DNA from: a virus
IMG/VR virus record: IMGVR_UViG_3300045988_085380
Coordinates: 96,001 to 160,000 of that record
Direction: 5' to 3' (one strand)
DNA length: 64,000 nucleotides
How positions within the stretch are numbered: the stretch's first letter is position 1; every line of letters begins with the position of its first letter. Below are positions 1 through 18,509 of this stretch, piece by piece. The position numbers were made by a program, and so were the translations under genes. The notes below the pieces were generated by a model, which had not been told where the DNA came from, ran no database searches, and saw only the letters and a program-made list of their open reading frames with translations.

Positions 1-713
1 GTGAGAGCATGGTCTAACTTACTAAAGGTACCATTTAAATAAGTATCTTTAAAACAGGTAATCATAGTTCTACTTCTTTTTATAGTAGTGTATAGTCTAG
101 CTGCAAGAGAAGCATTTATCTCACTAAAGCCAATTGAACGTGCCTTCATTAAAGCAGCATTTTTATGTAATACTCTACACATCTGTAAATAATGAAAGAA
201 CATATATTGAGAAGCAAAGAATACTGGAAAACTTTCATTAGTACCTTCACCTGATGCCTTATCCATATCTACTACTGGTAACTAATAAAAATTTAAGAAG
301 AAATAGTTATCTCCAGTAATAGTGTATCCGTGTGAGGTCATACCATATTTACACCTAGTATATTGTTCTTTCCAAAATGCATCCCATCTTTTACTTCTAG
401 GTAAATAAGAACAATATCTGCCAGTTTTTAGAAATGTTTCTCTAACTTCAGTAAACCATGAAGGATCAAAATCTAAACCATGAGTTTCATCTATAGGTCT
501 ATAACCAGTTAATTCGTAAGATAGAGTAGGATCAAAACATTCTATTTTCATATCCTTAGTAATATCCCAATATGTCTTATCATTAGAACGTTCAATTCTA
601 TACTCATCAACTAATTTCTTAGCTTCTTTAGTATCTTCTTCCTACTATTTCTTTTTTACTTCATCTACAATTAACTAGATTTCATCAGGTAATACTTTCT
701 TCTTTCTAGGCAT
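1..713 (-). CDS. terminase large subunit (TerL)-like, N-terminal part; CDS runs off the left edge; TAG read as sense
   Basis: ATG at 713. The frame is open to nt 1 only if the 4 in-frame TAGs (282, 642, 645, 675) are sense; no in-frame TAA/TGA (checked codon by codon). N-terminal segment ...TITGDNYFFLNFYQLP... recalls TerL N-termini (from memory). Confidence 0.55.
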
Positions 714-718
714 ATCAA

Positions 719-1279
719 TTAAAAATCACCTGGGTCATATCCGGTATTAACTCCACCTCTAGTTGTAGACTCTTGTGATACGGACTCTTTAACTTCTTTC
801 TCTAAAGTAATTAATTGCTCATGGACATTACTTAACTAAGCCATCTCCTTCATTACTTTTTCTGCAGAGAAAATAGGTTTACCATTAATATCTCGTTCAT
901 TTAAATCTACAATAGTTTCAAAATAATCTATAAACTAATCTGCTGCCCTTCGAGCTGCTTCCAATAATTTCACAGATTTATTTGATTCTTGTAATTTCCT
1001 ATATTTTCGACAAGCTTCTCTAAATATAGGGTCATTAAACTAAGCTTCTGTCAAACCACTATCAGCTAAAGCTTCTTCATGTCTTTCCTATTCCAAATAA
1101 TTAGAATAAGGAGACTTCCAATCTAAAGCTAAATAAATGTAAGTGAGTTCTTTCATTACTCTAGTCTTAGTTTTCGTTTTATCTCTATCTAGAAGAGCCT
1201 TAAATTCTCTAATTAAAAGAATCTCAGGCTCATTTAACTCTAGAACAAGATGGTCACTATCATAATTAAATACATTCAT
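719..1279 (-). CDS. hypothetical protein, 186 aa, amber-recoded; possible small terminase by position only
   Basis: ATG 1279 to TAA 719; 4 in-frame TAGs, no TAA/TGA (checked). Lies 5 nt upstream of the TerL start. Confidence 0.6.
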
Positions 1280-1308
1280 AAATCATTAACATTAAACATA
1301 TATTTTAA

Positions 1309-2916
1309 TTATCTCTTCTTTTTATAGTTCCAAGGAGCAACTTTGGCGTCATTCTCACCCTTACCTGCACCTGCTTCTTGTCTATTTCTTCTTTGCATTT
1401 CGGCAATTTCCTTAGCTGATTTACCTCTAGTATAAGGATTTCTCTAATAAGACTGTTTTACAGCATCTTGTTCTTTCTTTTTCTTAAAGTTTTTAATAGG
1501 GTCAGATTTTCCTCCATTTTGCATCTTTTTACCTGCACATACTTTACAGATTTCTCCGCCCTTTTTAAAATATACTACTTCTTGACCTTCAGGACACTCT
1601 CCAATAGACTATTTAATATAATCTAGTTTAGCACCGAGTCTTGCTTTACGAGATCCTTTCATTTGTTGAACAATATTTTTTAATAATTGGGCTACTTGAG
1701 CTGCTTGCTAATCACCTTGTTGTGCTACCTACATAATTTTCTAAATAGTCTATTTAGCTTTCTAATCACCCTACATAGCTGCCTAAACTAAAGCTATTGC
1801 CTACTATTCCATTCCCTATTGTCCACTTGCCTATTGTGGCTGTACCATTTGTGCTCCTGCTGCGTATTTATACATTTGTCCTCCCTTTTCAAATTTTAAA
1901 TTAACTAACTAATTATTCTAACTTGGATTATATCCTAAATTAGGTTTAGTTAATTGATACTAACTAGTCTAATTCTGAACAGCATTATTTAACATATTCT
2001 ACTAGATTTTACCATCCCCTATAATTTTACTCACAGATTGAGTATAGTTATCAGTTGTAGGATTATTTAAATATGTTCTTAACTATTTTCTATCTGACCC
2101 TGAATAATCATAAGGATTTATCCCATTTGCTCTCATGCCCTATCTAATATCACCTCTATCAAAATTATGTTTAGTAAGTTCTGAATAGCTATCTAATGGT
2201 CTACTTTCTAAATAATTAGTGACTGCGTTTCCTAAATTAGGAGCTTTATAATTACCGTTATTAATTAAGGTAGATACATTATGAGAATTAGTTATATCAG
2301 TAGTTGAGCCGTTTGGAGTAGATAAAGTTACACTACCATTTCCAACATGAATGCCATACCCAGGAGTTCCTTTAATAGGAGTTGCTTGCTAAGTTGGTGT
2401 AGATGAATTAAACTAGTTACCTCCTCTTTTACTATAAATATTATTTAAATAACTAGCTAAATCTTTATGTTGAGATAAGTAACTTCCTACTTTACTAAAA
2501 TCTCCTGTCTTATAAGCATTTGCTACATCTGCTTGAGATACTCCATTATAATTCCATATTCCTCTACCCTTATTAATCCATGAATTAGATGCAGGAGTTT
2601 TTGGAGCTGACATGGTTCTTGATCTGCCAGTTGTAGAAGATGTACCGGTACGAGATTTACTTGTAGTAGGAGCTTTGGAATTTTTAGTAGCCTATGGTTT
2701 AGTTACATTAGGTTTCCAATTACTTTGACTATAAGGTCTTATTATATAATTCTGATTTCCCTATGTTTGTTCACTAATTCTATTAAAATCTTTACGAGGA
2801 ATCAATTCATCAGAATGATATAAATCTTTTTCTTTAGTACCCGGAGTATAACTTGTATCTACTAAATCTAATTCAACTCTCGGATACACTGGTGTAGTTC
2901 TCCATTTCCATGCCAT
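1309..2916 (-). CDS. hypothetical Q/N-rich protein, 535 aa, amber-recoded
   Basis: ATG 2916 to TAA 1309; 25 in-frame TAGs and no in-frame TAA/TGA (every codon checked). The standard-code ORF 2413..2613 is an internal fragment. Confidence 0.7.
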
Positions 2917-2979
2917 AATTATACAAGTATTAAATTATTCTAGTTAGTTCTATTTATCTAAGTATTCAATTCTCTCTAG

Positions 2980-3636
2980 TTAATCATGCTCTTCTATTTT
3001 AATTGTTTCATTATTAATCCTGTTTGGATATTTTACATAAAAATAATTTCCAAAATTGGGATTTTTTAATCTCTTCTATATAGTATTATACTTAACTCCT
3101 GTTCTTTCTGAAGCTTCTTTTAAAGAATTATAAATAATCCCATCTATACTGATAATAGAATGGTGAGACATACTCTTTCTTTGTTTAGCTGCCTAAGAAA
3201 GTTTTTCTTTATGTTTTTTTGTTAGCGTTCTCCCTCTTTGTCCTTCACTAATATGTTTAGCGTGCTCTTTTGACTTTTTAACGCCTGTAGTAGTTTTGCT
3301 TATCTTCTACTTTGTTTCTTCCGTGTGGTGATAACCTAAAGTACTACCTGCGGCAGGCAAGATATTATATTCAGGTTCTATAATATTTATCCAATACTGC
3401 TCTCTATCAAACAACTAATCTTTAAGATCTTCTGTAATTTCTAGCTCTTCTAAAATTTCGTAATCAAACTATGTTTCTCCATAATCATTCCATGCTTCCT
3501 AAAATCTATAAGAATGGTGTTTATTCTTTCTTAAAGAATTTAAATGCTATAATCTCCTCCTGTTCAAATCTGAAGAACTTCCAATGTAACAATCGCCTGT
3601 TACAGTATTAACAAACCTATAAATCCCTGCTTTCAT
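2980..3636 (-). CDS. GIY-YIG homing endonuclease (I-TevI-like, NUMOD3 repeats plus C-terminal HTH), amber-recoded
   Basis: Translation MKAGIYRFVNTVTGDCYIGSSSDLNRRRLQH...EQYWI...GYHHTEETKQKIS...GRTLTKKHKEKLS...GIIYNSLKEASERTGVKYNTIQKRL; 7 in-frame TAGs; ends in TAA. Confidence 0.85.
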
Positions 3637-3800
3637 CGTCCTATCTCTCTATTACTATTAATTAGGACCAAATCCTTAGTGTTGAATACTGCTTCCTACA
3701 TTAAACCTGAATCAGTAAACCATCTGCATCTCAATCCTTTCATTTCATCTTTAAATAATGCTTGCTCTTTTCTAATAACAAGCATAGCCGGACAATGCAT
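3633..3800 (-). CDS. small hypothetical ORF (55 aa, one in-frame TAG), ATGA-coupled to the GIY-YIG gene
   Basis: ATG 3800; its TGA overlaps the ATG of the downstream gene (cgATGAaa). No motif; overlaps a hairpin. Confidence 0.3.
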
Positions 3801-3852
3801 TTTGTCACGCTAACGCAGACTTACAACATCTCCCGGCTATAGATAAACTTTA

Positions 3853-4458
3853 TTACTTGTTTCCATTACTTTTAATTTGATTCTTTCTTTCTGTTAATTT
3901 CTCATTAACTATTGCCATAATTCGTGATTCATTAACTACTACAAATCCTTGCTTGAAGAATGGAACAGTAGCTTCACTAGCTTTAGTAAAGAATACTACA
4001 TCACCCTCTTTTAAGAACTCACATTTGAATCCAGTTTCAATTACAGTACCAACACGAATAAACTGTTCCAATTCGTGAATTTGACCATCCTCTTCACTCT
4101 TATATTGAGGAGTAAATCCACCTAAGTCAGTAATAATTCCACTTTCTACTGTTATCTTTTGAAAAGGATTTTCATCAAAAGGTTTAATTAATGCATAAGA
4201 ACCCATCGGTAATATCTCTAAACCATTGATGTCTTTTGAGATTTCCTTAGCATAATCTTCAAGTGCCTTATTGTGTTTTTCAAATTTATCTATATATTCA
4301 TCTACTTTAGTATTAAATTTAGATTTCTTCTCATTAGCTAAAATAATATCCGCTCTTTGTCCATTAACTACAATAGGAGTTCCTGTACTTTCCATACCGA
4401 TAAGTGATTGAGCTACTTTCTCTTTTCCATTTAATTCACTTCTAAAATCCATAGTCAT
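3853..4458 (-). CDS. hypothetical protein with GroES/Gp31-like C-terminal domain
   Basis: C-terminal pattern LEILPMGSYALIKPF...ESGIIT...VGTVIETG...LKEGDVVFF...GFVVVNESRIMAIV resembles the Cpn10 fold signature. Confidence 0.4.
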   Translation of the reverse strand: MTMDFRSELNGKEKVAQSLIGMESTGTPIVVNGQRADIILANEKKSKFNTKVDEYIDKFEKHNKALEDYAKEISKDINGLEILPMGSYALIKPFDENPFQKITVESGIITDLGGFTPQYKSEEDGQIHELEQFIRVGTVIETGFKCEFLKEGDVVFFTKASEATVPFFKQGFVVVNESRIMAIVNEKLTERKNQIKSNGNK

Positions 4459-4481
4459 TTACATTTAATTTATGGCAATAA

Positions 4482-4739
4482 TTACCATTTACCTTGTTCA
4501 CAAAATTCATCTTTAATTCTAGTTTTATTATCTAACACACATCCACATAAATCACATAAATCACCAAAGTTAGTATTTAATTTATGGTCACATCTATGAC
4601 ATATATCTAATCTTGTAATAGCTAAATCTTGATGTTTATTCTTAATATTATAATATATGCTTTTTAATATAGTTAATGGCTTAGTTAAAATGCCATGTAA
4701 CCACTTAATTAATATGTTTAATTTCATTCTGCTTCCCAT
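4482..4739 (-). CDS. Cys-rich small protein (zinc-ribbon-like), paralogue of 4724..4945
   Basis: Pattern shared with its neighbour: C..C ... C.LCGCVL..K......C...KW. Confidence 0.55.
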   Translation of the reverse strand: MGSRMKLNILIKWLHGILTKPLTILKSIYYNIKNKHQDLAITRLDICHRCDHKLNTNFGDLCDLCGCVLDNKTRIKDEFCEQGKW

Positions 4740-4945
4740 TTATTACAAGGACAATGTGAGTTTTTATTACTAATCTTAAATTTAAGTACGCATCCGCACC
4801 CCTTTAAATATCCCTTCTTAGGTGTTGTACTTACATCATTATTTTCAGGATTTAAATACAAATGTGCATTACAAATCTCATTTTCTTGGTCACAAATAGG
4901 ACAAGCTCTACATATTTTAGTACGTTTAGTTATATATTCTTCCAT
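4724..4945 (-). CDS. Cys-rich small protein (zinc-ribbon-like), paralogue of 4482..4739
   Basis: CRACPIC...C...GCGCVLKFK...HCPCNKW; 16-nt overlap with the downstream paralogue. Confidence 0.55.
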   Translation of the reverse strand: MEEYITKRTKICRACPICDQENEICNAHLYLNPENNDVSTTPKKGYLKGCGCVLKFKISNKNSHCPCNKWEAE

Positions 4946-5036
4946 ATATTAATTTGTATATTAATTCTTAGTTAATTCCATTATAGTGCTATAAATTAAA
5001 TAAGCTATTAGTAATAATGCTATACATAGTATCATA

Positions 5037-5951
5037 TTAATATTCAATTCGTTTATTCTTTAATCTACGTTCTTGTAGAAGATGTTCCTTTTCATAGTAA
5101 GATAACATACGTTCTACTTCTTTTCTAAGATAAGGTAGATGATAAACAGTCATATTGTCATTATGATCAAAATGTACTAATACTAAGTCTTCTATACTAA
5201 AATCAGGATTATATGATTCAATTATATAAGCATAAGTACTAAGCTGAAGACAATAATGATAATAATTACAATCATCTAAATTATTTAGAGGAAACTTCAT
5301 CTTAACAGAACTTCTTACTTTGGAATCAAAATAGCTCTTAGTATCAATCTTCTTATTCGTTTTCCAGTCTCCGATTATGATAGAATTTCCTTTTTTAACT
5401 AATAAATCAATCTGACCTGCAATATGTAATTTACCAGATGGAGAATCCCAATGAATTAAATACTCAGGATATACTGCATTCTCCAAATCTAAAGTTGTTC
5501 TATCTTTTTGACATTCAAATTTACCTCCTATTTGATATTTATCTAGAGTAATATTCTTTTTCTTGGTGTAAAAGGAATTCTCTAATCCTGCATGTATTTT
5601 AGTACCTCTTTCACAAGACCTTCTATTCTCCTCATCCCAAGAATCTAATATTTCTTGCTGTGCTTTATTAAAATCTAACTCTGTAATATTATGTAACTCT
5701 AACAGAACAGGATCAAATTTCTTAGTATTTAAAAGAGATTTCTTCTCAATCTTAAATTCATCAGCAGGTAATAATTTTTCTAAGGCTTTATACGCTGACC
5801 AAAATTCTTTATCAAATGGCTGACCAAATTGCTCAATCATAGTAGTTACAGAAGTAAACTTAATAGAAGGATCATTAATATCCCAATAACGATGAGCTTT
5901 CTCATTAAAAACTACTGTTCCATTTTGTTTATCAATACTTAAATTTTCCAT
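5037..5951 (-). CDS. PD-(D/E)XK (RecB/Cas4-like) nuclease
   Basis: Motifs GTKIHAGLE, GQIDLLVKKGNSIIIGDWKTNKK, YCLQLSTYAYI (D...D/ExK...QxxxY). Confidence 0.6.
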   Translation of the reverse strand: MENLSIDKQNGTVVFNEKAHRYWDINDPSIKFTSVTTMIEQFGQPFDKEFWSAYKALEKLLPADEFKIEKKSLLNTKKFDPVLLELHNITELDFNKAQQEILDSWDEENRRSCERGTKIHAGLENSFYTKKKNITLDKYQIGGKFECQKDRTTLDLENAVYPEYLIHWDSPSGKLHIAGQIDLLVKKGNSIIIGDWKTNKKIDTKSYFDSKVRSSVKMKFPLNNLDDCNYYHYCLQLSTYAYIIESYNPDFSIEDLVLVHFDHNDNMTVYHLPYLRKEVERMLSYYEKEHLLQERRLKNKRIEY

Positions 5952-6074
5952 ATAACATTAACATTTTACATTTATTTTATATTTATCTAAACTAATTTTT
6001 AACTTTTCAATAATAATATATAATTAGGTGTATAACAAATTAATTAGTAATATAAACTCTTAAATTTAATTAAA

Positions 6075-6791
6075 ATGGAAGATTTAGAAATATTTGGTAT
6101 TCCTTATCTAGCTAAAGGTTCAGGAATACATATTAAAAAGGAAAATAGAGGGAAATTTACTGAGACTAAAAAGAGAACAGGTAAAACTACTGAAGAATTA
6201 ACACATAGTAAAAATCCTCTAACTAGAAAAAGAGCCATATTTGCTTAGAATGCAAAGAAATGGAAACATGAAGATGGTGGTGAAGTACATAAGCCAAATG
6301 GTCATAGATCAATATTAGATAATGGATGGTTTAAAACAAAGGATTTAAAGAATCCTCTTACTTATTAGTAGGGTGGACCTTTTTAGATTAATAACTCATA
6401 GCCTCAAGTGTTATAGAGATATATCTCCTTAGTTAATTAGGGTATTCCACAACAAGCTGCTTTTGATACTTCACATTTATCTATGATAGAAGATGGTAGA
6501 CCTGGAAAATATTATTCATTCGGAAAAAGAGCTTCTAACTTAGGTGGATGGACTAAAAATGCAACTGATAGTCTAACTAATGGAAGATATAAAAATTTAT
6601 AGAATGTCTAGAATTTTGGATAGTTTAAATAGGGATTAAAATAGAAGAACTATAATACAAGACCAGCTTTCTATAATGTAGAAATGAATAGAGGAAGAAA
6701 TAGAGATAAATAGATTATTAATTAGTGGAATAAACAATAGGGTTTAAATCCAATTGCTCAAATATATAATTAGAATATTAACTAGGTATGA
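6075..6791 (+). CDS. hypothetical protein, 238 aa, amber-recoded
   Basis: ATG 6075 to TGA 6789-6791; 17 in-frame TAGs; frame verified across 6360-6440. Confidence 0.65.
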
Positions 6792-6916
6792 AAGATATAA
6801 ATATACAATTGAATGAATTACAAAGATTTTTAGATTTTGTAAATGAGAGAGATAAGCAACTATGGGAAAGATATTTAATTAAATGCACCCAATTAAATGA
6901 CGATATAGAATTATGA
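6788..6916 (+). CDS. small hypothetical protein (42 aa)
   Basis: ATG overlaps the upstream stop (ATGA). Its own stop overlaps the next start. Confidence 0.35.
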   Translation: MKDINIQLNELQRFLDFVNERDKQLWERYLIKCTQLNDDIEL

Positions 6917-7251
6917 AAGTAATCATAAATAATATCTTACCTCCAAAAGGTTTTAAATGTATAAATTTATTTGGTATACTATTCTGTAGAAGAATACTAA
7001 ATAAAATAGATATAAACCATGAAACTATACATACTAAATAGGGATAGGAACTATTGTGGATAGGTTTTTATTTATGGTATATAATAGAATATTTAATTAG
7101 ATTAATTATATACAGAGATACTAAATTAGCTTATAAAAATATCTCTTTTGAAAGAGAAGCTTATTAGAATTAGGGTGATTTAGATTATCTAAGTAATAGA
7201 AAACATTATAGTTGGTTATCTAAGTTAATTAATGAAAGAGTTTTTAATTAA
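6913..7251 (+). CDS. putative small zinc metallopeptidase-like protein (HExxH), amber-recoded
   Basis: ...DINHETIHTKQGQELLW...FEREAYQNQGD...; 4 in-frame TAGs; ends in TAA at 7249. Confidence 0.5.
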
Positions 7252-7470: not shown

Positions 7471-7502
7471 AAGGCGGCTTAGCTTAATTGCTAGGTCGCC
7501 TT
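7471..7502. terminator. bidirectional hairpin between convergent genes
   Basis: AAGGCG...CGCCTT stem with an inner GCTTAGC/GCTAGGT stem; sits between the 7441(+) and 7528(-) gene ends. Confidence 0.6.
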
Positions 7503-8008: not shown

Positions 8009-8034
8009 AATACATATCTTTTATAATTAAATTG

Positions 8035-8106
8035 TTCTCTCACAAGGATTCGAACCCTGACTAAAAGATTTAGAGTCTTCTGTGCTAACCATTACACCAT
8101 AAGAGA
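8035..8106 (-). tRNA. amber suppressor tRNA, anticodon CUA, Gln-type body
   Basis: Cloverleaf TCTCTTA-TG-GTGT-AATGGTTA-GCAC-A-GAAGA-CTCTAAA-TCTTT-TAGT-CAGGG-TTCGAAT-CCTTG-TGAGAGA-A. D-arm and T-loop match the phage tRNA-Gln(UUG) at 18775. Confidence 0.85.
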
Positions 8107-8150
8107 ATATTAGCTAGTTATCAAAACTAGCTAAATGTGTATTTAAGTTA

Positions 8151-9615: not shown

Positions 9616-9939
9616 ATGATTCCAAACATTATTAAGACCATTATTAAGGATATTCCTTCAGTTGCTAACTCTTCTATTCGTCTTATAAACGAAAACAGAG
9701 ATAGAGGTCAATTCACCTTTGTAACTACTGATGCAAAGGCAGTTTCTATTGTGCTAACTAATGTACCAAAAGGTGCTCCGAAATCTATCTCTGCTCATAA
9801 AAAGCAGATGATTGCAGATTTCCTCTATTTAGTTGCTGTTGAGAGCGACCATATGTGTACCTCAGAAGGCAAAAAGTACACTCTTGCGGATATAGCAAAA
9901 GAGATTGACCTTATCATCTCACAAGATGTTGTCTTGTAG
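9616..9939 (+). CDS. hypothetical protein (TAG-terminated; 14 further sense codons before an in-frame TAA)
   Basis: ORF preceded by AACACATTACCA. Confidence 0.55.
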   Translation: MIPNIIKTIIKDIPSVANSSIRLINENRDRGQFTFVTTDAKAVSIVLTNVPKGAPKSISAHKKQMIADFLYLVAVESDHMCTSEGKKYTLADIAKEIDLIISQDVVL

Positions 9940-10041
9940 GATATGGAAGAAAATGGTGAATATCTCATTATTGAGGATTAATTCTCACGACCCAAGCAAG
10001 TCGTTAAACTGCTTATTAACAATATTAAATACAATAGAATT

Positions 10042-10563
10042 ATGATTACATTACATTTCACAGTTTCTAACTATTCAGAAGATTTTATCGAGTTGTCTTT
10101 GTGTGCTGAGGATAAAGTGCTGACTTCTCAGCAGGTCTCTAAGTACACTTGGGAAGAGAACGATAACGGTCTCCAAGATTATTGGAAGTTCAAGCTAATT
10201 ACTGAAGTCCGAAAGGACATTGAGAGTTGGCAACCAAAATATGAACTTCCTAAAGACATCTATGACGCTTGGTACAAGTGGTACTATTACGTAGACGGTG
10301 AAGACGCTTCAGAATTTATCCGTGAGATAGGATGCTCTCAGCATACACTCCATTTTCAGTCTAACTATGCCATTATATTAGGTTGGAAATACTTCAAGAA
10401 GTTGAAAGCTGCAAAGTTCAAAACTAGTACAGCTGCGATACTGGCTTATGCTCGTGGTTATCTTGGAGGAATGGATGCTAACAACCGATATGAACAAGAG
10501 GGTACAGAGGCTCTCGGCATACTCGGATTGCAGACTCTGCCTGACACAAACTTAGTTGACTAA
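10042..10563 (+). CDS. hypothetical protein
   Basis: Intact 173-aa ORF. Confidence 0.6.
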   Translation: MITLHFTVSNYSEDFIELSLCAEDKVLTSQQVSKYTWEENDNGLQDYWKFKLITEVRKDIESWQPKYELPKDIYDAWYKWYYYVDGEDASEFIREIGCSQHTLHFQSNYAIILGWKYFKKLKAAKFKTSTAAILAYARGYLGGMDANNRYEQEGTEALGILGLQTLPDTNLVD

Positions 10564-10642
10564 TATTATGACAGAAGAAGAGAAAGAGGACTATTTCTAT
10601 GAATACATAGATGCATTTGTAGAGGCTTTATATAATAACTCA

Positions 10643-10667
10643 GGAGAGCATTAATTTGCTCTCCTTT
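10643..10667 (+). terminator. intrinsic terminator
   Basis: GGAGAGCA-ttaatt-TGCTCTCC followed by TTT. Confidence 0.6.
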
Positions 10668-10682
10668 AAATATAAATAGAAT

Positions 10683-10868
10683 ATGAAAAAGGAAAACATT
10701 TTAAAATTGTTAGAAATTATCTATGATGAGACTAACAACTGCATAACTAAAAGCCGGACTAATAACTACTGGTGCACAGTTAATGAGATAAGTGAAGAAG
10801 ATTTTCAAAAGGTAAAGAGTTTCTATATTGATTTTGTTAATGAGACTCTTCCAAGATTACTAAAATAA
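10683..10868 (+). CDS. hypothetical protein
   Basis: Intact 61-aa ORF followed by a strong terminator. Confidence 0.5.
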   Translation: MKKENILKLLEIIYDETNNCITKSRTNNYWCTVNEISEEDFQKVKSFYIDFVNETLPRLLK

Positions 10869-10870
10869 GA

Positions 10871-10917
10871 AAGGCTAACCTGGGGAAATAACTTCCTTGG
10901 GTTAGCCCTTATTTTTT
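10871..10917 (+). terminator. intrinsic terminator
   Basis: AAGGCTAACC...GGTTAGCCCTT stem followed by ATTTTTT. Confidence 0.75.
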
Positions 10918-10923
10918 AATTAG

Positions 10924-10995
10924 CTTTTCTCCCCAAAATCTTCCCTAACTTCTCCCTCAACTCTTCTCTCTTTATTTTCCTCTCCAATAAAAATA
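10924..10995 (+). other. 72-nt G-free, C/T-rich tract
   Basis: CTTTTCTCCCCAAAATCTTCCCTAACTTCTCCCTCAACTCTTCTCTCTTTATTTTCCTCTCC...; no G between 10924 and 10995. Confidence 0.8.
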
Positions 10996-11001
10996 GCCAT
11001 A

Positions 11002-11036
11002 AATAGGTAGAAAATAGCCGTGTATAAGCACCTATT
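11002..11036 (+). promoter_or_regulatory. hairpin with CGTGTATAAGC-containing loop upstream of 11133
   Basis: AATAGGT / ACCTATT stem; the loop resembles the GTGWATAA loops elsewhere in the window. Confidence 0.35.
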
Positions 11037-11132
11037 GTAACTTAGCAACAAGTATAAGTGTTGTGGTAGCAAATCTTGCATACTTAATGTATAGCAAGAG
11101 ACTACATAATTAAATAATAGGAGAATTAAACA

Positions 11133-11699
11133 ATGACAGTTATTGAAAGAATCAATGCAAACAAAGCTGACGGTGCAATTAAGATGGGTCTTAGTGTATT
11201 CACATCGGGGATGAAACCAGTCTTTGACGGTGGAGCAGCTCTCAATGAGGGTGACATCTTGATCTTCCCAACACTTGAGGAGATGAAGGAGCGTATTGGC
11301 TCACGTACATTCAATGGTAATGACTATGAGTTCATGGTCATTGATGTTGAAGCACCTGATGGAACTAAGCGTGCGATTAACTGGTTCCCAACTACTTTCC
11401 AGAATCCATTGTTCGTATGGGCTGAGGATAGTGCCGGTAAACCATATCGTACATCAGACGTACTCTATCCAGAAGGTACAGCTGTCGCTGAGTTCTTGAA
11501 GGTACGTGGTCAGTCTGACCTTGATGTTAATGGTAACATCATCAAGAGCGATACTCAGAAGGGTGTTGAACTCTTGGCTGGCAAGAAAGTCAAGGTAAGC
11601 TCTAAGGCGCTCTACAAGACTACTGGTTTCAAGGATGGTGTACAGGACACCTCAAAACTCATTGACAAGGCACTCTTCAAGTATGATTTGGTAGCCTAA
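11133..11699 (+). CDS. hypothetical protein (higher GC, probably abundant)
   Basis: Intact 188-aa ORF; the two overlapping ORFs (11126..11314, 11296..11499) are judged spurious. Confidence 0.65.
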   Translation: MTVIERINANKADGAIKMGLSVFTSGMKPVFDGGAALNEGDILIFPTLEEMKERIGSRTFNGNDYEFMVIDVEAPDGTKRAINWFPTTFQNPLFVWAEDSAGKPYRTSDVLYPEGTAVAEFLKVRGQSDLDVNGNIIKSDTQKGVELLAGKKVKVSSKALYKTTGFKDGVQDTSKLIDKALFKYDLVA

Positions 11700-11709
11700 G
11701 TGAACTAAG

Positions 11710-11943
11710 ATGGCAATCTACAAAGGTCGCCATCTTAATCCTCTATCTCGGAAACTAATAACTGTAAAAGCCCATAAAAAGGCTTCAAGGTTATTAGTTT
11801 CTGAGTATAAGTATTATAAAGTTCGAGAAGACATCACCAAATATCCAGCTTGTGATTGTTGGTGGCAACTAGAACTCTTAGAAGTACTTAGAAACGGAGA
11901 ACGCCGATACTCAGTTAGACAGTGTTATTTATGCAAAACATAA
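11710..11943 (+). CDS. hypothetical basic Cys-containing protein
   Basis: Intact 77-aa ORF. Confidence 0.45.
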   Translation: MAIYKGRHLNPLSRKLITVKAHKKASRLLVSEYKYYKVREDITKYPACDCWWQLELLEVLRNGERRYSVRQCYLCKT

Positions 11944-12446
11944 GCGGATAACACAATCGAGACGGAGACAAGGTGGCGCTGGCATGGGAGAGTGGTTTTT
12001 ACTACTTTCCCATTACAAGTCAATTTTCAAACATTGGTGGCATAAGTAACTCACACTTTAATGTTTTCTTGAGATATAAACTATAGTCATAATTAAATCA
12101 GAATTAAAAACCTTTTAGTGTATAGGTTAACTAATAATATGATGTAACTTCAAAATTAAAAAACCACCTTAGTATATAGCTAAATAGTAGAACGGGTGTT
12201 TATCCTTTTATAGGTTTGTACTAGGCAGTATTTAGCGCGTCGTAACACATTGAAAGTATTACTGGTAGAACTAAAGTATTAAAAAGACTTTAGAAGTAAG
12301 AAAGCGTAAAGACAGTTAGTAGAGGGGATAGTAAGTGTTGAAGAACTCTACATTATTTATTAAGCAATAACCTCGGTGCTTAAAGAGAGGCTTCCCTTAA
12401 ACAAGGAGTAAGAGAAATTGTTTAGTCAGCCAGGAGACGTTAAAAT

Positions 12447-12507
12447 TCATACTGATGAGACTGGACGAAATACCTAGTAACAGTTGTACGTTATTAGGTA
12501 TCTATGA
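12447..12507 (+). ncRNA. hammerhead-like core (type I topology) with defective stem II
   Basis: TCATA-CTGATGA-GACTGGAC-GAAA-TACCTA...TAGGTA-TC-TATGA. Stems I and III pair; stem II cannot form. Confidence 0.2.
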
Positions 12508-12517
12508 GTATAAATTT

Positions 12518-12529
12518 AACACATTAACA
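12518..12529 (+). promoter_or_regulatory. AACACATTAACA leader motif
   Basis: Exact 12-mer 2 nt before the ATG at 12532. Confidence 0.5.
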
Positions 12530-12531
12530 AT

Positions 12532-12822
12532 ATGAAAAAGAATATTATTGACACTTTGATTCCAGCAGTATCATTAGAAGTAATAAGATTTAATGCTTCG
12601 GAAATTTTGAATGACAAAGAGCCTGCTCTTCGTGCTTTAATGACAGATAAGTCTGTTATAGTAAATTCACAAACTGAAGCCTTTGAAATAGCTGAAAAGG
12701 CTGTTTTAGCAGGTATCGTTGTAACTTCAATAGAAACTTTGTTACAAGATGGTTACACAACTATTGGTGACGTAGCAGTAGATGTATCACTTCCTGCTCA
12801 GTATGTAGTAAAATGTGAGTAA
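12532..12822 (+). CDS. hypothetical protein
   Basis: Intact 96-aa ORF. Confidence 0.6.
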   Translation: MKKNIIDTLIPAVSLEVIRFNASEILNDKEPALRALMTDKSVIVNSQTEAFEIAEKAVLAGIVVTSIETLLQDGYTTIGDVAVDVSLPAQYVVKCE

Positions 12823-12833
12823 TTAAAAACACC

Positions 12834-12856
12834 TAAGCATGTGTATAAACTGCTTA
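12834..12856 (+). promoter_or_regulatory. hairpin TAAGCA-tgtgtataaac-TGCTTA (TAAACTGCT motif)
   Basis: Related to the hairpin at 13405-13425 and the motif at 10005-10013. Confidence 0.4.
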
Positions 12857-12892
12857 ATTAACTAAAATAATAACTCTTTAACAAAATAGATT

Positions 12893-13114
12893 ATGAAGAT
12901 AGAAATTAACTTAAAAGGCAACAAAGCAGTTGTCAAAGAGAGTAACAACTTAGTTGATGCTCTTGAAGAATTTGATGCAAAAGAAATTGAGTCAGTAGTT
13001 TATACTGAAGGTGATATTACAACTTTTGCTAAACCAGTAAAAGAGTTTAGAGGTTATACTCTGAAAACTACTGGTAAGTATAATAACAAAACAGGAGAAT
13101 TTGAGTATGTCTAG
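12893..13114 (+). CDS. hypothetical protein
   Basis: Intact 73-aa ORF. Confidence 0.55.
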   Translation: MKIEINLKGNKAVVKESNNLVDALEEFDAKEIESVVYTEGDITTFAKPVKEFRGYTLKTTGKYNNKTGEFEYV

Positions 13115-13370
13115 AAAAAAGAATAAGTTACAAGGGTATGACACATTAGTGTCTACCTTTGTGCTCTTATCTAAAGAGTCTAAGGAAGAAGTATTAGACA
13201 AATTAGATAAGATGGATAAAGTCCAAGTGAAGTCTACTCATTATTACAAAGGACAATTAGTTCTTGATATTGAGTATGATGCTTATTGGGCTTCTTGTTG
13301 GTTTGACACTTCTGCAGGTATCAGAGAACACACTGGTAAATATCCAAAACGAATTTATGTAAGTAAGTAA
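13101..13370 (+). CDS. hypothetical protein
   Basis: Intact 89-aa ORF; 14-nt overlap with the upstream gene. Confidence 0.55.
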   Translation: MSMSRKKNKLQGYDTLVSTFVLLSKESKEEVLDKLDKMDKVQVKSTHYYKGQLVLDIEYDAYWASCWFDTSAGIREHTGKYPKRIYVSK

Positions 13371-13404
13371 TTCATATTCGCACATAGTTTTAAGACAAGC
13401 TCCT

Positions 13405-13425
13405 GAGCATGAGTTTAAACTGCTC
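13405..13425 (+). promoter_or_regulatory. hairpin GAGCA-tgagtttaaac-TGCTC (TAAACTGCT motif)
   Basis: Covarying stem relative to 12834-12856. Confidence 0.4.
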
Positions 13426-13431
13426 AATTTT

Positions 13432-13692
13432 ATGTATAATATTATTAACAATATCAAAAATAAATTCTATTACAAAACATTCTCTAACCAGGACATAGAA
13501 AGCTATTTAACAAAAACTGGCTGGGATTATGAAAAGGCTAAAGCTTTTGCTAAAAGATTTACTAGGTATCTTTGTCCTAAGTTTAAAAGTAACGGAGATA
13601 TAACAGAATATTATATTCCTAAAGAAGGTTTTAGTAGAAAAAACATTGATAAATTTATAGCTCACTTAGATAAAGTAGCTATTTTCTATTAG
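13432..13692 (+). CDS. hypothetical protein (TAG-terminated)
   Basis: Intact 86-aa ORF. Confidence 0.55.
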   Translation: MYNIINNIKNKFYYKTFSNQDIESYLTKTGWDYEKAKAFAKRFTRYLCPKFKSNGDITEYYIPKEGFSRKNIDKFIAHLDKVAIFY

Positions 13693-13846
13693 TTTTATTA
13701 ATAATTTAAATGGCAATAAGGAATAGAGTTGTAAAATAAATATGGTTGTAGTATCACCCGATGTGGCAACTAGTAGTATTATGCAATAAAATACTAATTA
13801 AGGTAGTGGGTTATCAGCTCTATCCCAATTACACACTTAACAGAAA

Positions 13847-14146
13847 ATGATTACAGGAAGTTCAACTCTTATTCAGGTATTCCAGTTGTATCAGAATAAG
13901 ATAAAAGAAAAAGAACATAGAAACTGGAAATTCAATGCTGCTAAATATCGTAATATAGCAATAGCTAATAGAAAGGCTCATAATTATGCAGTGAATCAAC
14001 TTATTAAAGAATCCGGATTAGAGTATACTCCTGAGATATTTAAGTTGATGTCTCTCGTAATTAATGAGAAGTTCTCAATTAGAAAGATGTCTATTGTTAA
14101 AGTAGATATTGCTCTATTTAAATTAGCTAATAATGCATTAATTTAA
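13847..14146 (+). CDS. hypothetical protein
   Basis: Intact 99-aa ORF. Confidence 0.5.
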   Translation: MITGSSTLIQVFQLYQNKIKEKEHRNWKFNAAKYRNIAIANRKAHNYAVNQLIKESGLEYTPEIFKLMSLVINEKFSIRKMSIVKVDIALFKLANNALI

Positions 14147-14167
14147 CAGTTAGTAATAAAATAATTA

Positions 14168-14179
14168 AACACATTAACA
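14168..14179 (+). promoter_or_regulatory. AACACATTAACA leader motif
   Basis: Exact 12-mer 1 nt before the ATG at 14181. Confidence 0.5.
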
Positions 14180-14180
14180 A

Positions 14181-14390
14181 ATGAAAAAATTTTATTTTTA
14201 CTTTACAGTATTCTATATCATTATTTATATATGTGGTATAGATTACATTGCCCATATGTCACTCTTTGTGGCACTCTTCATGGGCTTCGGGGCATTTGCT
14301 CTCTGTGTTCTTTGTTCTACCTTTATGAACGAAGAGCTATTTAAAGAGTATACAGGTTGGAATTGGCTTAATAAATGGGCTAATTCCTAG
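14181..14390 (+). CDS. small membrane protein (TAG-terminated)
   Basis: Two hydrophobic helices. Confidence 0.5.
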   Translation: MKKFYFYFTVFYIIIYICGIDYIAHMSLFVALFMGFGAFALCVLCSTFMNEELFKEYTGWNWLNKWANS

Positions 14391-14544
14391 TTATTAACAA
14401 TATAAATAGTAATAAAATGAAACAATTTAAGAAAAGTCGTGAGCCTACTAGTTTTGATAATGTAAGGAATTTGCCATAAATAAGTTAAAGGCATTCAATA
14501 TGATTTAGTCTAATTAAGAGTAATTAGATTGTATTTAGGTATCA

Positions 14545-14596
14545 ATTCACAATTATAGTAAAGACAGACATAGTGTCTGTTTATAGATTCACAATT
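14545..14596 (+). promoter_or_regulatory. two ATTCACAATT boxes flanking a hairpin upstream of 14614
   Basis: Boxes at 14545-14554 and 14587-14596, with the hairpin ACAGAC-atagt-GTCTGT between them. Confidence 0.45.
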
Positions 14597-14613
14597 TTTT
14601 AGATTACAACAAA

Positions 14614-15126
14614 ATGAAAAATGGAATTTTTTCTTGGACATCTGAAGGTGTCAAAGTAACTACCGAAACAGAGGTAGCTAACGGAGTGCAAAGAACTGAA
14701 ATCATCTTGAACTCAAATGGTGATTACAAGCCACATGAGTTTGATGATGTCGAGTTGTTACACTTATTCAAAGACGACATTATCTATGCGCTTAAAGAAC
14801 GTATAGATAAGTGCGAGCATGAACTCGTTAACGCTAAAGAGCGTGGCGAGCGTAAAGTAGACTCTTGGGACTATCGCACCAAGGGAGATTGTGATGATAC
14901 CTTTGAGCTCAAGTCACATCAGGCTATGCTTGATGCTATTAAGTTGGCAGAAGAGGAGAAGTTTGATGAGTTTACAGCTCATATGTGGTGCCAGTTGGAG
15001 AAAGCACTGGCTAATGTTCCTAAGAAGTGGCATCGTAAGCCATACACATTTGGTACGTTGTTTGGCTTTGTAATGGAGAAGGCACAGTATGCTATGCATC
15101 TCCTTTATAATGAGAAAAAGAAGTAA
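14614..15126 (+). CDS. hypothetical protein
   Basis: Intact 170-aa ORF with higher GC. Confidence 0.6.
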   Translation: MKNGIFSWTSEGVKVTTETEVANGVQRTEIILNSNGDYKPHEFDDVELLHLFKDDIIYALKERIDKCEHELVNAKERGERKVDSWDYRTKGDCDDTFELKSHQAMLDAIKLAEEEKFDEFTAHMWCQLEKALANVPKKWHRKPYTFGTLFGFVMEKAQYAMHLLYNEKKK

Positions 15127-15249
15127 TTTTTTCTGTTAAGTTCCATAATCAAGAGACCTAATTAGACTTTAATTATTTTATATAGTTATTGTTTAGTTAG
15201 GTCTTTACTATTTAGTAAGATTGTGGGATTCTCTAATTATGGAACAATT

Positions 15250-15453
15250 ATGACAACGGAAGAAGCAGAAAAGATTGCAGAGCAAGTAGAAACTATGTTA
15301 ATGGGTGTAGATATTAAGCCAGATACAATGACTATTGAACCTAGCATTACAGTTTCTATTCAGTATGATGAAAAGGGAGTAAATCGATACATAATATCTG
15401 ATTTACAAGGTACATGCGCAGTAAATGGACGTTCCCTGAAATGCCCTAAATAA
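15250..15453 (+). CDS. hypothetical protein
   Basis: ATG 15250 preferred over the GTG at 15223. Confidence 0.45.
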   Translation: MTTEEAEKIAEQVETMLMGVDIKPDTMTIEPSITVSIQYDEKGVNRYIISDLQGTCAVNGRSLKCPK

Positions 15454-15538
15454 CAGAAATACGAATAAAGATAAAATAGGACTCTAGTACTATAGAGTAT
15501 AATAAATAGTTGGCATCTTGGAAAGAAAATTGGTTAAT

Positions 15539-15564
15539 CATAAGACAAGACTTATGTATTTTTT
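15539..15564 (+). terminator. intrinsic terminator
   Basis: CATAAG-acaaga-CTTATG followed by TATTTTTT. Confidence 0.6.
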
Positions 15565-15590
15565 AGATAATTAATTAAATAGATAAGATT

Positions 15591-15989
15591 ATGGATTTTA
15601 CAAAGAAAGTAAACGATTTTGGTTTGTTCGGTAACGTATTGGTAGTTAACAATAACGTTATAGAGGATGTCGGTGTTATTAAGACTGACGAAGATAAGAA
15701 AGTTCTTGCGGCAGCTGCTCACATTACTAGTAAAGCTATTAGTAATCAAGTTAAAAAGGGAGAACTTAATCCTATTGAAGGATTAATTGCAGGTATTGAA
15801 GCTACAGATTCAACAAGAATCACTCTTGTCACTCCTGATATTAAGGACATTAAGCTCTTCACTGAAGCAGTAATTAAGACTGCTGAAGATGGCAATATGT
15901 GTCATATGAAAGACTATGTACATGAGACCGGTAACAATATTCCTCAAGACATCTGGGATTATATCTACAAGTTAACTAACGACAAATAA
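15591..15989 (+). CDS. hypothetical protein
   Basis: Intact 132-aa ORF. Confidence 0.6.
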   Translation: MDFTKKVNDFGLFGNVLVVNNNVIEDVGVIKTDEDKKVLAAAAHITSKAISNQVKKGELNPIEGLIAGIEATDSTRITLVTPDIKDIKLFTEAVIKTAEDGNMCHMKDYVHETGNNIPQDIWDYIYKLTNDK

Positions 15990-16145
15990 TTATGACACTA
16001 TTAAATATAATTTGTGGAGCAATTCCTATTATTATTATTTTAGTATTAAAAAGTAAAGAATAATGGAGTTTCTTAGAATTGTTTGGGCTATAGTATTTGG
16101 ATTAATATTTGTAGCTATTGTAGGTTCCGAAATGACTAAGTAATA

Positions 16146-16475
16146 ATGATTATCGATAAAGATAATTTCGAATTACTAATTGAAGCTTTAGATTTCTGGG
16201 TTAAGGATAGTGTCCTTCCAGTAATTCCTAAGAATAGAATAAGTGTTAGAAAAACCAATACTTGGTCTACTAACTATTTATGCTGTACTAAGGAATGGAA
16301 GAAGAGATACAAAACTAACCCAGCTAAAGCTTTGTGCGAGTTAGTAATAGACCATTATAAATATATTTATATTAGAAACTATCCAATTATTGAGTTAGTT
16401 AATAATTATAAATATCTTTACTATTGGTTAATAGGAAATGAGTATAAACAAAATAGAGAAACACCTCTATTGTAG
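16146..16475 (+). CDS. hypothetical protein (ends TAG-TAA)
   Basis: Intact 109-aa ORF. Confidence 0.55.
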   Translation: MIIDKDNFELLIEALDFWVKDSVLPVIPKNRISVRKTNTWSTNYLCCTKEWKKRYKTNPAKALCELVIDHYKYIYIRNYPIIELVNNYKYLYYWLIGNEYKQNRETPLL

Positions 16476-16489
16476 TAATTAATTAAATT

Positions 16490-16942
16490 ATGGTAATAAC
16501 AGGAATAGTATTAGTAGCACTAATTATATTTATTATAGTTGGAGTTACTGCGAAGAAAAATCAAGAGAAAAAGAATGAGATTAATAGATTAGAACATCAA
16601 ATTTGTCAATTAAATAAGTTTAAAGGTGAATTGATGTCTCATCACACTCTTGAAGACACTTTTAAAATCCATAAACAGTTAGGAGAAATGCATTTGGCAT
16701 GGAGTATTGCAATATGCCCTGATAAGTATGGTATGTTCAGAACTTCTAACATTGCAACTATGTCTATGGATGAAGTATTTCTTGGTGATATTTATGGTTT
16801 ATGGACTCATTCTCTTACTTACTGGTTATCTAGTAAGAATGATGAAGCAGTTTCTATAGTTACCAATCAATATTATCAACAAGTGCTCAGTGGTATTAAA
16901 GCCGAGATAGAAGAATTAAAGAAGAAAATTAGTTCTCTATAA
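16490..16942 (+). CDS. hypothetical protein with N-terminal TM anchor
   Basis: N-terminus MVITGIVLVALIIFIIVGV. Confidence 0.55.
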   Translation: MVITGIVLVALIIFIIVGVTAKKNQEKKNEINRLEHQICQLNKFKGELMSHHTLEDTFKIHKQLGEMHLAWSIAICPDKYGMFRTSNIATMSMDEVFLGDIYGLWTHSLTYWLSSKNDEAVSIVTNQYYQQVLSGIKAEIEELKKKISSL

Positions 16943-17082
16943 TCATTCTATGCCTATAAAAGAATTGGTAAGTTTTTAAGTGTTGATTACAAAATTAACA
17001 TTTATTAACTACCAATTCTAAATAACTGCTTATATAGTTAGTTCACTTGGCAAGGTTAATGAAAAAAGGCTAATTATTAGCA

Positions 17083-17156
17083 GCTTCCATAGCTCAACTG
17101 AATAGAGCAACAGCCTTCTAAGCTGTGGGTTTCCAGTTTGAATCTGGATGGAAGCA
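17083..17156 (+). tRNA. tRNA-Arg(UCU)
   Basis: GCTTCCA-TA-GCTC-AACTGAATA-GAGC-A-ACAGC-CTTCTAA-GCTGT-GGGTT-TCCAG-TTTGAAT-CTGGA-TGGAAGC-A. Confidence 0.9.
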
Positions 17157-17238
17157 CAACTACAAGTTACAACAAGGATATTTAAAATATTTTCAAGTTG
17201 TAATAATTGTGAATTAAAATAGGTCGACAAAATATAAT

Positions 17239-17269
17239 TCTACAATGGTTTGTGATAAATAGTTGTAAG
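17239..17269 (+). promoter_or_regulatory. conserved-loop hairpin (loop TGGTTTGTGATAAATAG)
   Basis: CTACAA / TTGTAAG imperfect stem; no tRNA follows this copy. Confidence 0.45.
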
Positions 17270-17871
17270 TTTCTTCAAAGATAAGTTTAGTGGATAACTA
17301 GAGTATTATTTAGGATGTACTATTTAATATATCTAGCACTCAAAGTCCACTAAACTTTCTTACTTAAATTGATATTTATGTTAGTTATATTGATACTCTC
17401 CTCTTAGAGGAAGTATAGGACATTATCTATCTAATCTATCAGCTGTGAAGAGTTGATTGGAAGAGAAGTTTAGTTTCAAAATATTGCGCAACTCCCATTA
17501 AATGGGATTAATATGAAACAATTACTAGTTAAGATAGCTAATTAATTAGTAAGCTGTAATCAATATAACCTTTTAAATATAGTGATAGAAGCAGGGGTTC
17601 GAATCCTTTAATTTTTGTAATTAGTTAGCTATCTAATTATGGAGATTTCGTCTAAATTTGGGAAGCAACGGGAGAAAAATGATTCTCTTAGTGCCTCACG
17701 TATGTAGAGTTTCTACAATCACCAGCCATGATGTGAGAGGACGCTATCACTTTAATTTGAATTTATTGTATTTAATCATATTTTGTTAGTGTGTTATGCC
17801 TATTTGGGCAAAGTTCTTACCACTATTCTACTTATAGAAATGTGGTGTGTCTAAGTAAATCTTAGACATAT

Positions 17872-17944
17872 GGAGATATAGCTTAGAAGGTCAGAGCGCG
17901 GGACTGAAAATCCCGAGATTGTGGTTCAATTCCACGTATCTCCA
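17872..17944 (+). tRNA. tRNA-Phe(GAA)
   Basis: GGAGATA...CGGGA-CTGAAAA-TCCCG...TGTGG-TTCAATT-CCACG-TATCTCC-A. Confidence 0.9.
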
Positions 17945-17948
17945 CTAT

Positions 17949-18038
17949 ATACGGATGCCTGAGTGGTCGAAAGGGTAGGTCTCCAAAACCTATAGAGACG
18001 AAAGTTGAACAGCGTAGGTTCGAATCCTACTCCGTGTG
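17949..18038 (+). tRNA. class II (long variable arm) tRNA with anticodon CCA; isotype uncertain
   Basis: ATACGGA-TG-CCTG-AGTGGTCGA-AAGG-G-TAGGT-CTCCAAA-ACCTA-(21-nt variable region)-GTAGG-TTCGAAT-CCTAC-TCCGTGT-G. Confidence 0.6.
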
Positions 18039-18253
18039 CAAATAAAAGGTGAAGTTGGGGTATCTTAGGATAGAATGAGCCTATAAGTCTTCAATGAGTC
18101 TAGTTAAATAAACTAGGCTCTACTCCCTGGCGTCATTTAAATCAGCTCTCTAAGCTTTAAGGTGAAGCACGAACCTTTTAAGTTCGGGAAGACAGGTCAG
18201 TACTGTCAGGAAGCACTCTGTATTTTATAAAAGTTAGAAGATTAACTTTATAA

Positions 18254-18282
18254 CTCTACCGGTTTGTGATAAATAGGTAGAG
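18254..18282 (+). promoter_or_regulatory. conserved-loop hairpin 4 nt 5' of tRNA-Asn
   Basis: CTCTACC-ggtttgtgataaata-GGTAGAG. Confidence 0.5.
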
Positions 18283-18286
18283 ACTT

Positions 18287-18360
18287 GTACCCTTAGTTCA
18301 GTTGGTTAGAACGCAAAACTGTTAATTTTGAAGTCGTAGGTTCAAATCCTACAGGGTACG
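18287..18360 (+). tRNA. tRNA-Asn(GUU)
   Basis: GTACCCT...CAAAA-CTGTTAA-TTTTG...GTAGG-TTCAAAT-CCTAC-AGGGTAC-G. Confidence 0.9.
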
Positions 18361-18399
18361 CAAATGTAAATTTTAAATGATTATAGAAATTATCTACAG

Positions 18400-18428
18400 G
18401 ATTCTCAGTCTGTGATAGATAGAGAATC
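18400..18428 (+). promoter_or_regulatory. conserved-loop hairpin 5 nt 5' of tRNA-Glu
   Basis: GATTCTC-agtctgtgatagata-GAGAATC. Confidence 0.5.
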
Positions 18429-18433
18429 TACTT

Positions 18434-18509
18434 GGCACTATCGTCTAGCTGGTCAGGACGGGATTCTTTCAAGATCCAAAGGCGATTTCGAGCATCGCTA
18501 GTGCTACCA
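18434..18509 (+). tRNA. tRNA-Glu(UUC), CCA encoded
   Basis: GGCACTA-TC-GTCT...GGAC-G-GGATT-CTTTCAA-GATCC...GCGAT-TTCGAGC-ATCGC-TAGTGCT-A-CCA. Confidence 0.85.

Follow-up and report, generated by a model that had tools for sequence, protein, structure and literature searches.

We analyzed a 64,000-nucleotide stretch of viral DNA (IMG/VR record IMGVR_UViG_3300045988_085380, positions 96,001 to 160,000), called the window below, whose left end (1..7251) carries a set of genes interrupted by in-frame TAG codons. The window very probably belongs to a large crAss-like phage of the human gut, ~188 kb long in its relatives, in which TAG has two readings within one genome. Under the standard genetic code (code 11), positions 1..3650 contain no open reading frame (ORF) of at least 100 aa, whereas long ORFs cover 97% of the same interval once TAG is read as sense, a difference in coding density that bears out an earlier note in which TAG was taken for a sense codon. 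Reading TGA as sense covered 0% of 1..3650 and was rejected because it restored nothing; reading TAA as sense was rejected because it only fused ORFs everywhere.

The earlier note listed six recoded coding sequences (CDSs), at 1..713, 719..1279, 1309..2916, and 2980..3636 on the minus strand and at 6075..6791 and 6913..7251 on the plus strand. All six start with ATG. Recounting gave 4, 4, 25, 7, 17, and 4 in-frame TAGs, as the note had reported, and a codon check agreed with it that none of the six has an internal TAA or TGA and that TAA or TGA closes each of the five complete ones. The six themselves therefore stood, but the list was not complete: two further recoded CDSs had been overlooked, at 3633..3866 (minus strand) and at 20954..22015 (plus strand). 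The eight recoded CDSs together hold 84 in-frame TAGs and no internal TAA or TGA.

Homology searches with the recoded translations matched the terminase, GIY-YIG, and HExxH identities that had been proposed, and the homology spanned the TAGs. The gene at 1..713 (minus strand; 4 TAGs) comprises 237 codons for the N terminus of the large terminase, TerL (phrog_6681, 5.8e-17), and is cut by the edge of the window. Its best annotated relatives are those of crAss001, Kehishuvirus, and Azobacteroides phage ProJPt-Bp1, and the crAss-like matches lie at 30 to 34% identity; a PDB sequence search with the full TerL gave no match. In relative L026, whose TerL is 98% identical, the full orthologue is 786 aa long with 18 TAGs. 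Just past the point corresponding to the left edge of the window, L026 also carries a recoded portal gene (39 TAGs; phrog_6547), four recoded proteins without assigned function (6 to 15 TAGs), and a tail-fibre-like protein (4 TAGs). Since the L026 genes beyond this edge are all recoded and include TerL, portal, and tail-fibre-like genes, the term late/structural block, used in the earlier note, is justified.

Directly upstream of TerL, the gene at 719..1279 (minus strand; 4 TAGs) encodes a 186-aa protein of unknown function (phrog_16390), in which Gln (glutamine) is the main alternative in relatives at three of the four TAG columns. It is followed by 1309..2916 (minus strand), which encodes a Gln-rich protein of 535 aa and unknown function, with 25 TAGs making up 48% of its Gln codons; no match to it was found in Pfam, PHROG, or PDB sequence searches.

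The next gene, 2980..3636 (minus strand), is a free-standing gene for a GIY-YIG homing endonuclease in which 7 TAGs account for 70% of the Gln codons. Its catalytic domain was recognized by PF01541 (2e-7; 31.6 bits against a cutoff of 22.6) and phrog_314 (3.8e-37), and matches to DNA-binding modules scored just below or below threshold (NUMOD3, 19.0 bits, cutoff 20.4; I-TevI_DNA-bd, 20.4 bits, cutoff 27). The gene rides on an insertion of ~730 bp (about 2936..3665) that near-identical relatives lack; in one of them, L037, the sequence at window position 2935 is joined directly to that at ~3666. Homologues were present in 3 of 104 related viral loci. The endonuclease is thus mobile, being present or absent among near-identical genomes, and this mobile element is itself written with sense TAGs. 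Its insertion replaced the last codons of one of the overlooked genes, the 77-aa CDS at 3633..3866 (minus strand; 3 TAGs), leaving an ATGA stop/start overlap at 3633-3636. The 77-aa gene is conserved in relatives, among which the same columns switch between TAG and Gln.

On the plus strand, 6075..6791 is the most densely recoded gene, with 17 TAGs making up 77% of the Gln codons of its 238-aa product. Residues 14 to 70 match virion cargo protein 1 (gp45) of crAss001 (PDB 7qog_M, E = 2e-6; 9e-6 with TAG masked), and PDB matches to repeat proteins ('Bagel') were rejected as spurious. Most close relatives have a 379-aa version of this protein. The neighboring gene at 6913..7251 (plus strand) encodes a 112-aa HExxH protein that matches phrog_15610 ('protease') end to end (3.7e-46), and its 4 TAGs are all of its Gln codons. 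It is missing from most close relatives, in which homology stops at ~6918 and restarts at ~7227, so that the small plus-strand module at 6075..7251 is variable among relatives.

The last of the eight recoded CDSs, 20954..22015 (plus strand), lies far from the others and encodes a 353-aa peptidoglycan-binding and YkuD cell-wall enzyme with 20 TAGs (67% of its Gln codons). Toward the N terminus the protein is similar to endolysins in their peptidoglycan-binding region (phrog_2649), and a domain of the YkuD L,D-transpeptidase fold (PF03734, 6.8e-6) forms the C-terminal part; the protein had no match in a PDB sequence search. The enzyme is probably lysis-related. Homologues of the gene down to 37% identity contain 11 to 18 TAGs and no TAA or TGA. 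The 1.1 kb upstream of it (19795..20954) has no ORF under any code and a G+C content that reaches 0.43, where the surroundings have ~0.30; the only Rfam match there was a 17-nt T-arm-like fragment. Relative L108 has a gene-free gap of 1.9 kb at the same place, with a tRNA-Leu inside and no DNA similarity to 19795..20954.

From base composition, 10 to 35 TAA or TGA codons would be expected in a reading frame the length of each of these genes, and the recoded genes contain none, while the two remaining frames on that strand contain 8 to 19 and 14 to 70. The probability of finding no TAA or TGA ranges from 4e-5 for a gene of 113 codons to 3e-16 for one of 536 codons. Their absence is neither chance nor the product of gene decay. 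Within the eight recoded late, lysis, or mobile genes TAG accounts for 48 to 100% of the Gln codons, and the first in-frame TAG falls between codons 13 and 64. Dozens of contigs that were assembled independently and come from different samples have TAG at the same positions, and relatives of 60 to 90% identity retain TAGs at the same columns.

We then compared the recoded genes, with TAG masked as X, codon by codon with TAG-sense ORFs from the 104 related viral loci. Relatives at least 90% identical either retained a TAG of the window or had CAA or CAG in its place, as was the case for 21 of 21 replacements. Dereplication left 56 TAG columns with at least one non-TAG residue, and Gln occurred at 35 of them; it was the commonest alternative at 20 of the 56, followed by Lys at 7. 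Summed over the 56 columns, BLOSUM62 scores were 96 for Gln, 12 for Lys (the runner-up), −7 for Glu, and −56 for Arg, and the same statistic returned the true residue for eight control amino acids. The comparison supports the suggestion of the earlier note that TAG is a sense codon for Gln; most probably it is read as such by a suppressor tRNA of the phage.

A matching suppressor tRNA had also been reported for this window, and we located it at 8034..8106 on the minus strand. It has the anticodon CUA and was found with the Rfam tRNA model (63.5 bits) and by ARAGORN. It folds as a canonical cloverleaf whose D- and T-loops have the usual sequences, and its first pair is U1-A72. Except for one extra D-loop base, its D-arm is that of the phage's own tRNA-Gln(UUG), and genes annotated in other phages as tRNA-Gln(UUG) or tRNA-Gln(CUG) align well with it; the molecule has the appearance of a supE-type tRNA-Gln with a change from CUG to CUA. 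Four relatives (L001, L026, L028, and L035) carry the same tRNA at the same position, and L039 and L041 have CTA suppressors at comparable positions.

Two hairpins lie nearby. One of 10 bp (8110..8134) sits 3 nt upstream of the 5' end of the suppressor tRNA, and a GC-rich one of 13 bp (7471..7502) separates the rightward recoded pair at 6075..7251 from the leftward unit that bears the tRNA. Both may be processing or terminator signals, and the latter is possibly a bidirectional terminator. A promoter scan of 5.9 to 9.7 kb returned 26 sites against 23.6 expected by chance, with a scan that does not cover Bacteroidota or crAss promoters. A theta (hepatitis delta virus-like) ribozyme, described at the 3' end of a suppressor tRNA (PMC10879173), was rejected here, as the next ORF starts only 25 nt from the tRNA; at Rfam gathering thresholds none was found in the window.

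The two readings of TAG are not separated by one code boundary, as the earlier note had proposed, but form a mosaic at the level of single genes. From left to right, recoded genes (1..3866, minus strand) are followed by TAG-free genes (3853..5951, minus strand), recoded genes (6075..7251, plus strand), and, from 7.2 kb onward, TAG-free genes, apart from the YkuD island. The TAG-free minus-strand genes encode a GroES-like protein (3853..4458), two small phrog_13558 proteins that are apparent tandem paralogues (4482..4739 and 4724..4945), and a PD-(D/E)XK exonuclease (5037..5951). On the same strand, the GroES-like gene and the recoded 77-aa gene share 14 nt, the stop of the former lying over the start of the latter, from which it follows that the code changes gene by gene and not per transcription unit.

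Most of the remaining window (9616..61592, plus strand) is a standard-code block for replication and nucleotide metabolism, with helicases, DnaB, primase, Sak4, RNase H, exonucleases, NrdD, 12 tRNAs, and a transfer-messenger RNA (tmRNA). The earlier observation that 3853..5951 and nearly all plus-strand genes between 9 and 64 kb are without internal TAG holds, with 20954..22015 as the exception. Long ORFs cover 0.684 of the interval from 9 to 64 kb under the standard code and 0.706 with TAG as sense, and the YkuD gene, the sole recoded gene inside this block, is the whole difference. About 12,000 codons of replication genes include 366 CAA or CAG codons and not one TAG. Gene functions support a division in which the recoded set would be the late one (structural, packaging, and lysis genes) and the replication genes would follow the standard code.

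TAG also retains its stop meaning in this genome. Nine genes of the replication block, all on the plus strand, terminate in TAG under the standard code: 9616..9939, 12893..13114, 13432..13692, 16146..16475, 24379..24969, 25875..26318, 40605..41279, 43863..44282, and 60075..61592. A TAA or TGA follows within 4 codons of the stop in seven of the nine, compared with 23 of the 71 genes whose own stop is TAA or TGA (Fisher P = 0.012; Mann-Whitney P = 0.027), and in two of the nine TAA comes immediately after the TAG. This enrichment of backup stops is modest, and its being specific to TAG suggests that TAG is meant to terminate there.

These observations are best explained by a scheme in which host RF1, early in infection, would stop translation at the first TAG of each recoded gene, so that no functional late or lysis protein would be made. 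As the suppressor tRNA accumulated, presumably charged by the host glutaminyl-tRNA synthetase (GlnRS), UAG would come to stand for Gln, and translation could then yield the packaging, virion, endonuclease, and cell-wall-degrading proteins. The backup stops would limit read-through of the early genes once the suppressor was present and leave the early proteins nearly unchanged. The sequence comparison itself shows the in-frame TAGs and their conservation, their equivalence to Gln codons, the conserved tRNA, and the division of genes by function. We infer which enzyme charges the tRNA, that it competes with RF1, and the early/late timing, the last from gene functions and the literature.

Several points weigh against this scheme. 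In distant relatives, the residues found opposite several of the TAGs are mainly Lys, Glu, or Arg. In sensitive BLAST searches, phAPEC8-like phages supply most near matches to the suppressor, with genes annotated as tRNA-Arg(UCU), and the tRNA deviates at positions 2-3 and 73 from the identity set of Escherichia coli GlnRS. The 14-nt overlap of the GroES-like and 77-aa genes means that the code partition does not run along transcription units, and the close TAA or TGA behind most early TAG stops is also compatible with read-through of TAG throughout infection. No release factor, no GlnRS or other aminoacyl-tRNA synthetase, and no other gene of code change was found in the window by ORF scans or by a sweep for GGQ, HIGH, and KMSKS motifs, which yielded only a chance GGQ in the Gln-rich 535-aa protein. 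Finally, both the timing and the insertion of Gln are inferred for this genome from its sequence. The first two of these points, together with the label 'Pyl' that ARAGORN gave the suppressor, could be taken to mean that TAG is decoded as something other than Gln, either pyrrolysine or Lys, Glu, Arg, Tyr, Leu, Ser, or Trp through another suppressor lineage. We consider this very improbable. With nearest neighbors that are tRNA-Gln in near mode and mostly tRNA-Arg in distant mode, the isotype is ambiguous and the similarity of the tRNA body alone cannot fix it, so that we rely for Gln on the codon evidence, in which close relatives replace TAG by CAA or CAG alone and the column scores place Gln far above Lys, Glu, and Arg. 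The 'Arg' tRNA of phAPEC8, moreover, has G1, while the suppressor, five of its six aligned orthologues, and the aligned tRNA-Gln genes have U1. We take the label 'Pyl' to reflect only the anticodon, because ARAGORN gave it to every tRNA with a CTA anticodon found here. tRNA-Pyl has an atypical architecture without the canonical D-loop and TΨC loop, whereas the suppressor has both, including G18G19; no Pyl-related family or pyl gene was found among the scanned ORFs of the window. Pyrrolysine decoding was rejected on the strength of these loops and of TAG columns that fit Gln and not Lys.

It might also be supposed that the interrupted genes are pseudogenes or artefacts of assembly or sequencing, given that the standard code fragments every gene in 1..3650. 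This supposition is effectively refuted by the complete lack of in-frame TAA and TGA where 10 to 35 per gene are expected, by the recurrence of the same TAG positions in independent contigs, and by amino acid conservation that runs across the TAGs. Another alternative holds that TAG is sense throughout infection, whether through a constitutive code 15 or in a TAG-reading host, and that its uneven use is a matter of history or mutation bias. The backup stops speak for it, in that reading the terminal TAGs as Gln adds only 1 to 5 residues to the seven genes concerned, and a code boundary that ignores transcription units would likewise fit. We nevertheless regard this as improbable in view of the sharp functional split between eight genes in which TAG supplies about half to all of the Gln codons and replication genes in which it supplies none. 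The YkuD gene, alone in the replication block, is heavily recoded even in distant relatives, and the enrichment of backup stops is specific to TAG terminators. In addition, the published hosts of crAss-like phages (Bacteroidota) use the standard code (10.1101/2021.08.26.457843; PMC7886860). The reading of TAG as a stop in early genes and as Gln in late ones could be extended by a role for the suppressor in a package that attacks host translation while the phage protects itself. If so, the suppressor would extend or stall host proteins terminated by TAG while early phage proteins stayed intact, and the phage tmRNA would rescue ribosomes running off host messages. The backup stops behind early TAGs, the phage tmRNA with a tag ORF closed by TAA, and the gene-by-gene recoding would fit this extension, which has been speculated upon before as host damage (PMC12386605) and which we think doubtful.

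Contigs whose TerL is 97 to 98% identical to that of the window are mostly 162 to 190 kb long, and the G+C content of the window is ~31%. Together with TerL and the suppressor pattern, these values point to the Zeta group of crAss-like phages, a well-supported assignment that does not draw on phylogeny. Members of this group are 145 to 192 kb long, and its branches reassign TAG, TGA, or neither (Yutin et al. 2021, PMC7886860). A Zeta genome, ctkor1, is listed with 187,612 bp, 31.36% G+C, a CTA suppressor, and the entry 'amber', in a paper that also remarks on TAG stops followed by TAA (PMC12386605, Table 1). The phage studied here shares with the group a crAss-like TerL and portal, ~31% G+C, a human gut origin, many tRNAs and homing endonucleases, genomes of 185 to 190 kb in its relatives, a CTA suppressor with amber suppression, and TAG stops closely followed by TAA. 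The phage phAss-1 (PMC10607447) was rejected as its lineage, since it belongs to a different, sipho-type phage group.

The literature agrees with the earlier note that recoding of late genes is established for some crAss-like phages (PMC7886860; 10.1101/2021.08.26.457843; PMC9523058; PMC12386605). Yutin et al. described read-through of UAG or UGA, mostly in late genes, with suppressor tRNAs (PMC7886860). Borges et al. reported TAG as Gln in structural and lysis genes, lysis genes preferentially, and, in other clades, dispersed recoded modules and a recoded homing endonuclease (10.1101/2021.08.26.457843). Proteomic validation of TAG as Gln in crAss-like phages was provided by Peters et al. (2022, PMC9523058). 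The system seen here does not differ in kind from these: in-frame TAGs aligned with Gln occur in TerL, portal, tail, and lysis genes, a tRNA with a CTA anticodon accompanies a standard-code replication module, and a cell-wall or lysis enzyme is among the most strongly recoded genes. Specific to it are the YkuD fold of the lysis-type enzyme and its isolation in the replication block, the free-standing recoded GIY-YIG gene whose insertion site lies in the final codons of the recoded 77-aa gene, and a window without release factor or synthetase. The suppressor resembles E. coli supE (glnV44, a tRNA-Gln changed from CUG to CUA) in its tRNA-Gln-type body, its CUA anticodon, and the presumed placing of Gln at UAG in competition with RF1. 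supE, however, is a weak laboratory suppressor, whereas the tRNA here is phage encoded, conserved, and needed for dozens of essential codons.

For the Zeta group, amber recoding in late and lysis genes, together with CTA suppressors, has been published before, and the YkuD and 6075..6791 proteins are already present in public protein collections as full-length translations with TAG as Gln. What we describe is a known system in a phage group already described; its value lies in annotation, and it opens no new question. Because the standard code shatters the terminase, portal, virion, endonuclease, and lysis genes, TAG must be annotated as Gln in a defined gene subset and at the same time kept as the terminator of at least nine early genes. 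The window is a clean further example of the published model in which stop codon recoding gates late and lysis translation, with a lone recoded cell-wall enzyme, a recoded endonuclease inside a recoded gene, and backup stops behind TAG as illustrative details.

Other features of the window lie mainly in the early block. The tmRNA maps to 30716..31049 (plus strand; Rfam, 50.4 bits) and encodes the tag peptide GEVNNTSVSYAIAA in an ORF closed by TAA. This tmRNA may be linked to the consequences of amber suppression. A RAGATH-1 hammerhead ribozyme (RF03152, 70.6 bits against a gathering threshold of 56.3) occupies an intergenic gap at 12423..12507 (plus strand). Two pairs of plus-strand genes appear to be tandem paralogues: 24379..24969 and 25875..26318, which have similar N termini by eye and both end in TAG, and 34325..34969 and 35071..35697, which both match phrog_5698.

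At 17949..18039 (plus strand) lies a 91-nt tRNA of type II, with a long variable arm, a Ser/Leu-like D-arm, G73, and the anticodon CCA, which corresponds to a Trp codon. It is conserved verbatim in 7 close relatives, and it would misread UGG if an anticodon-blind synthetase were to charge it. A long-arm tRNA also occurs in the distant relative L010 (contig 109388, 173,865 bp), where one of 96 nt with the anticodon TCA, of the opal suppressor type, accompanies a CTA suppressor (the two tRNAs at 13585..13657 and 14473..14568 of that contig). Comparison of the long-arm tRNA(CCA) of the window with the long-arm tRNA(UCA) of a relative revealed no evident homology. The presence of both CTA and TCA tRNAs in L010 suggests that the clade varies in which stop codon is suppressed.

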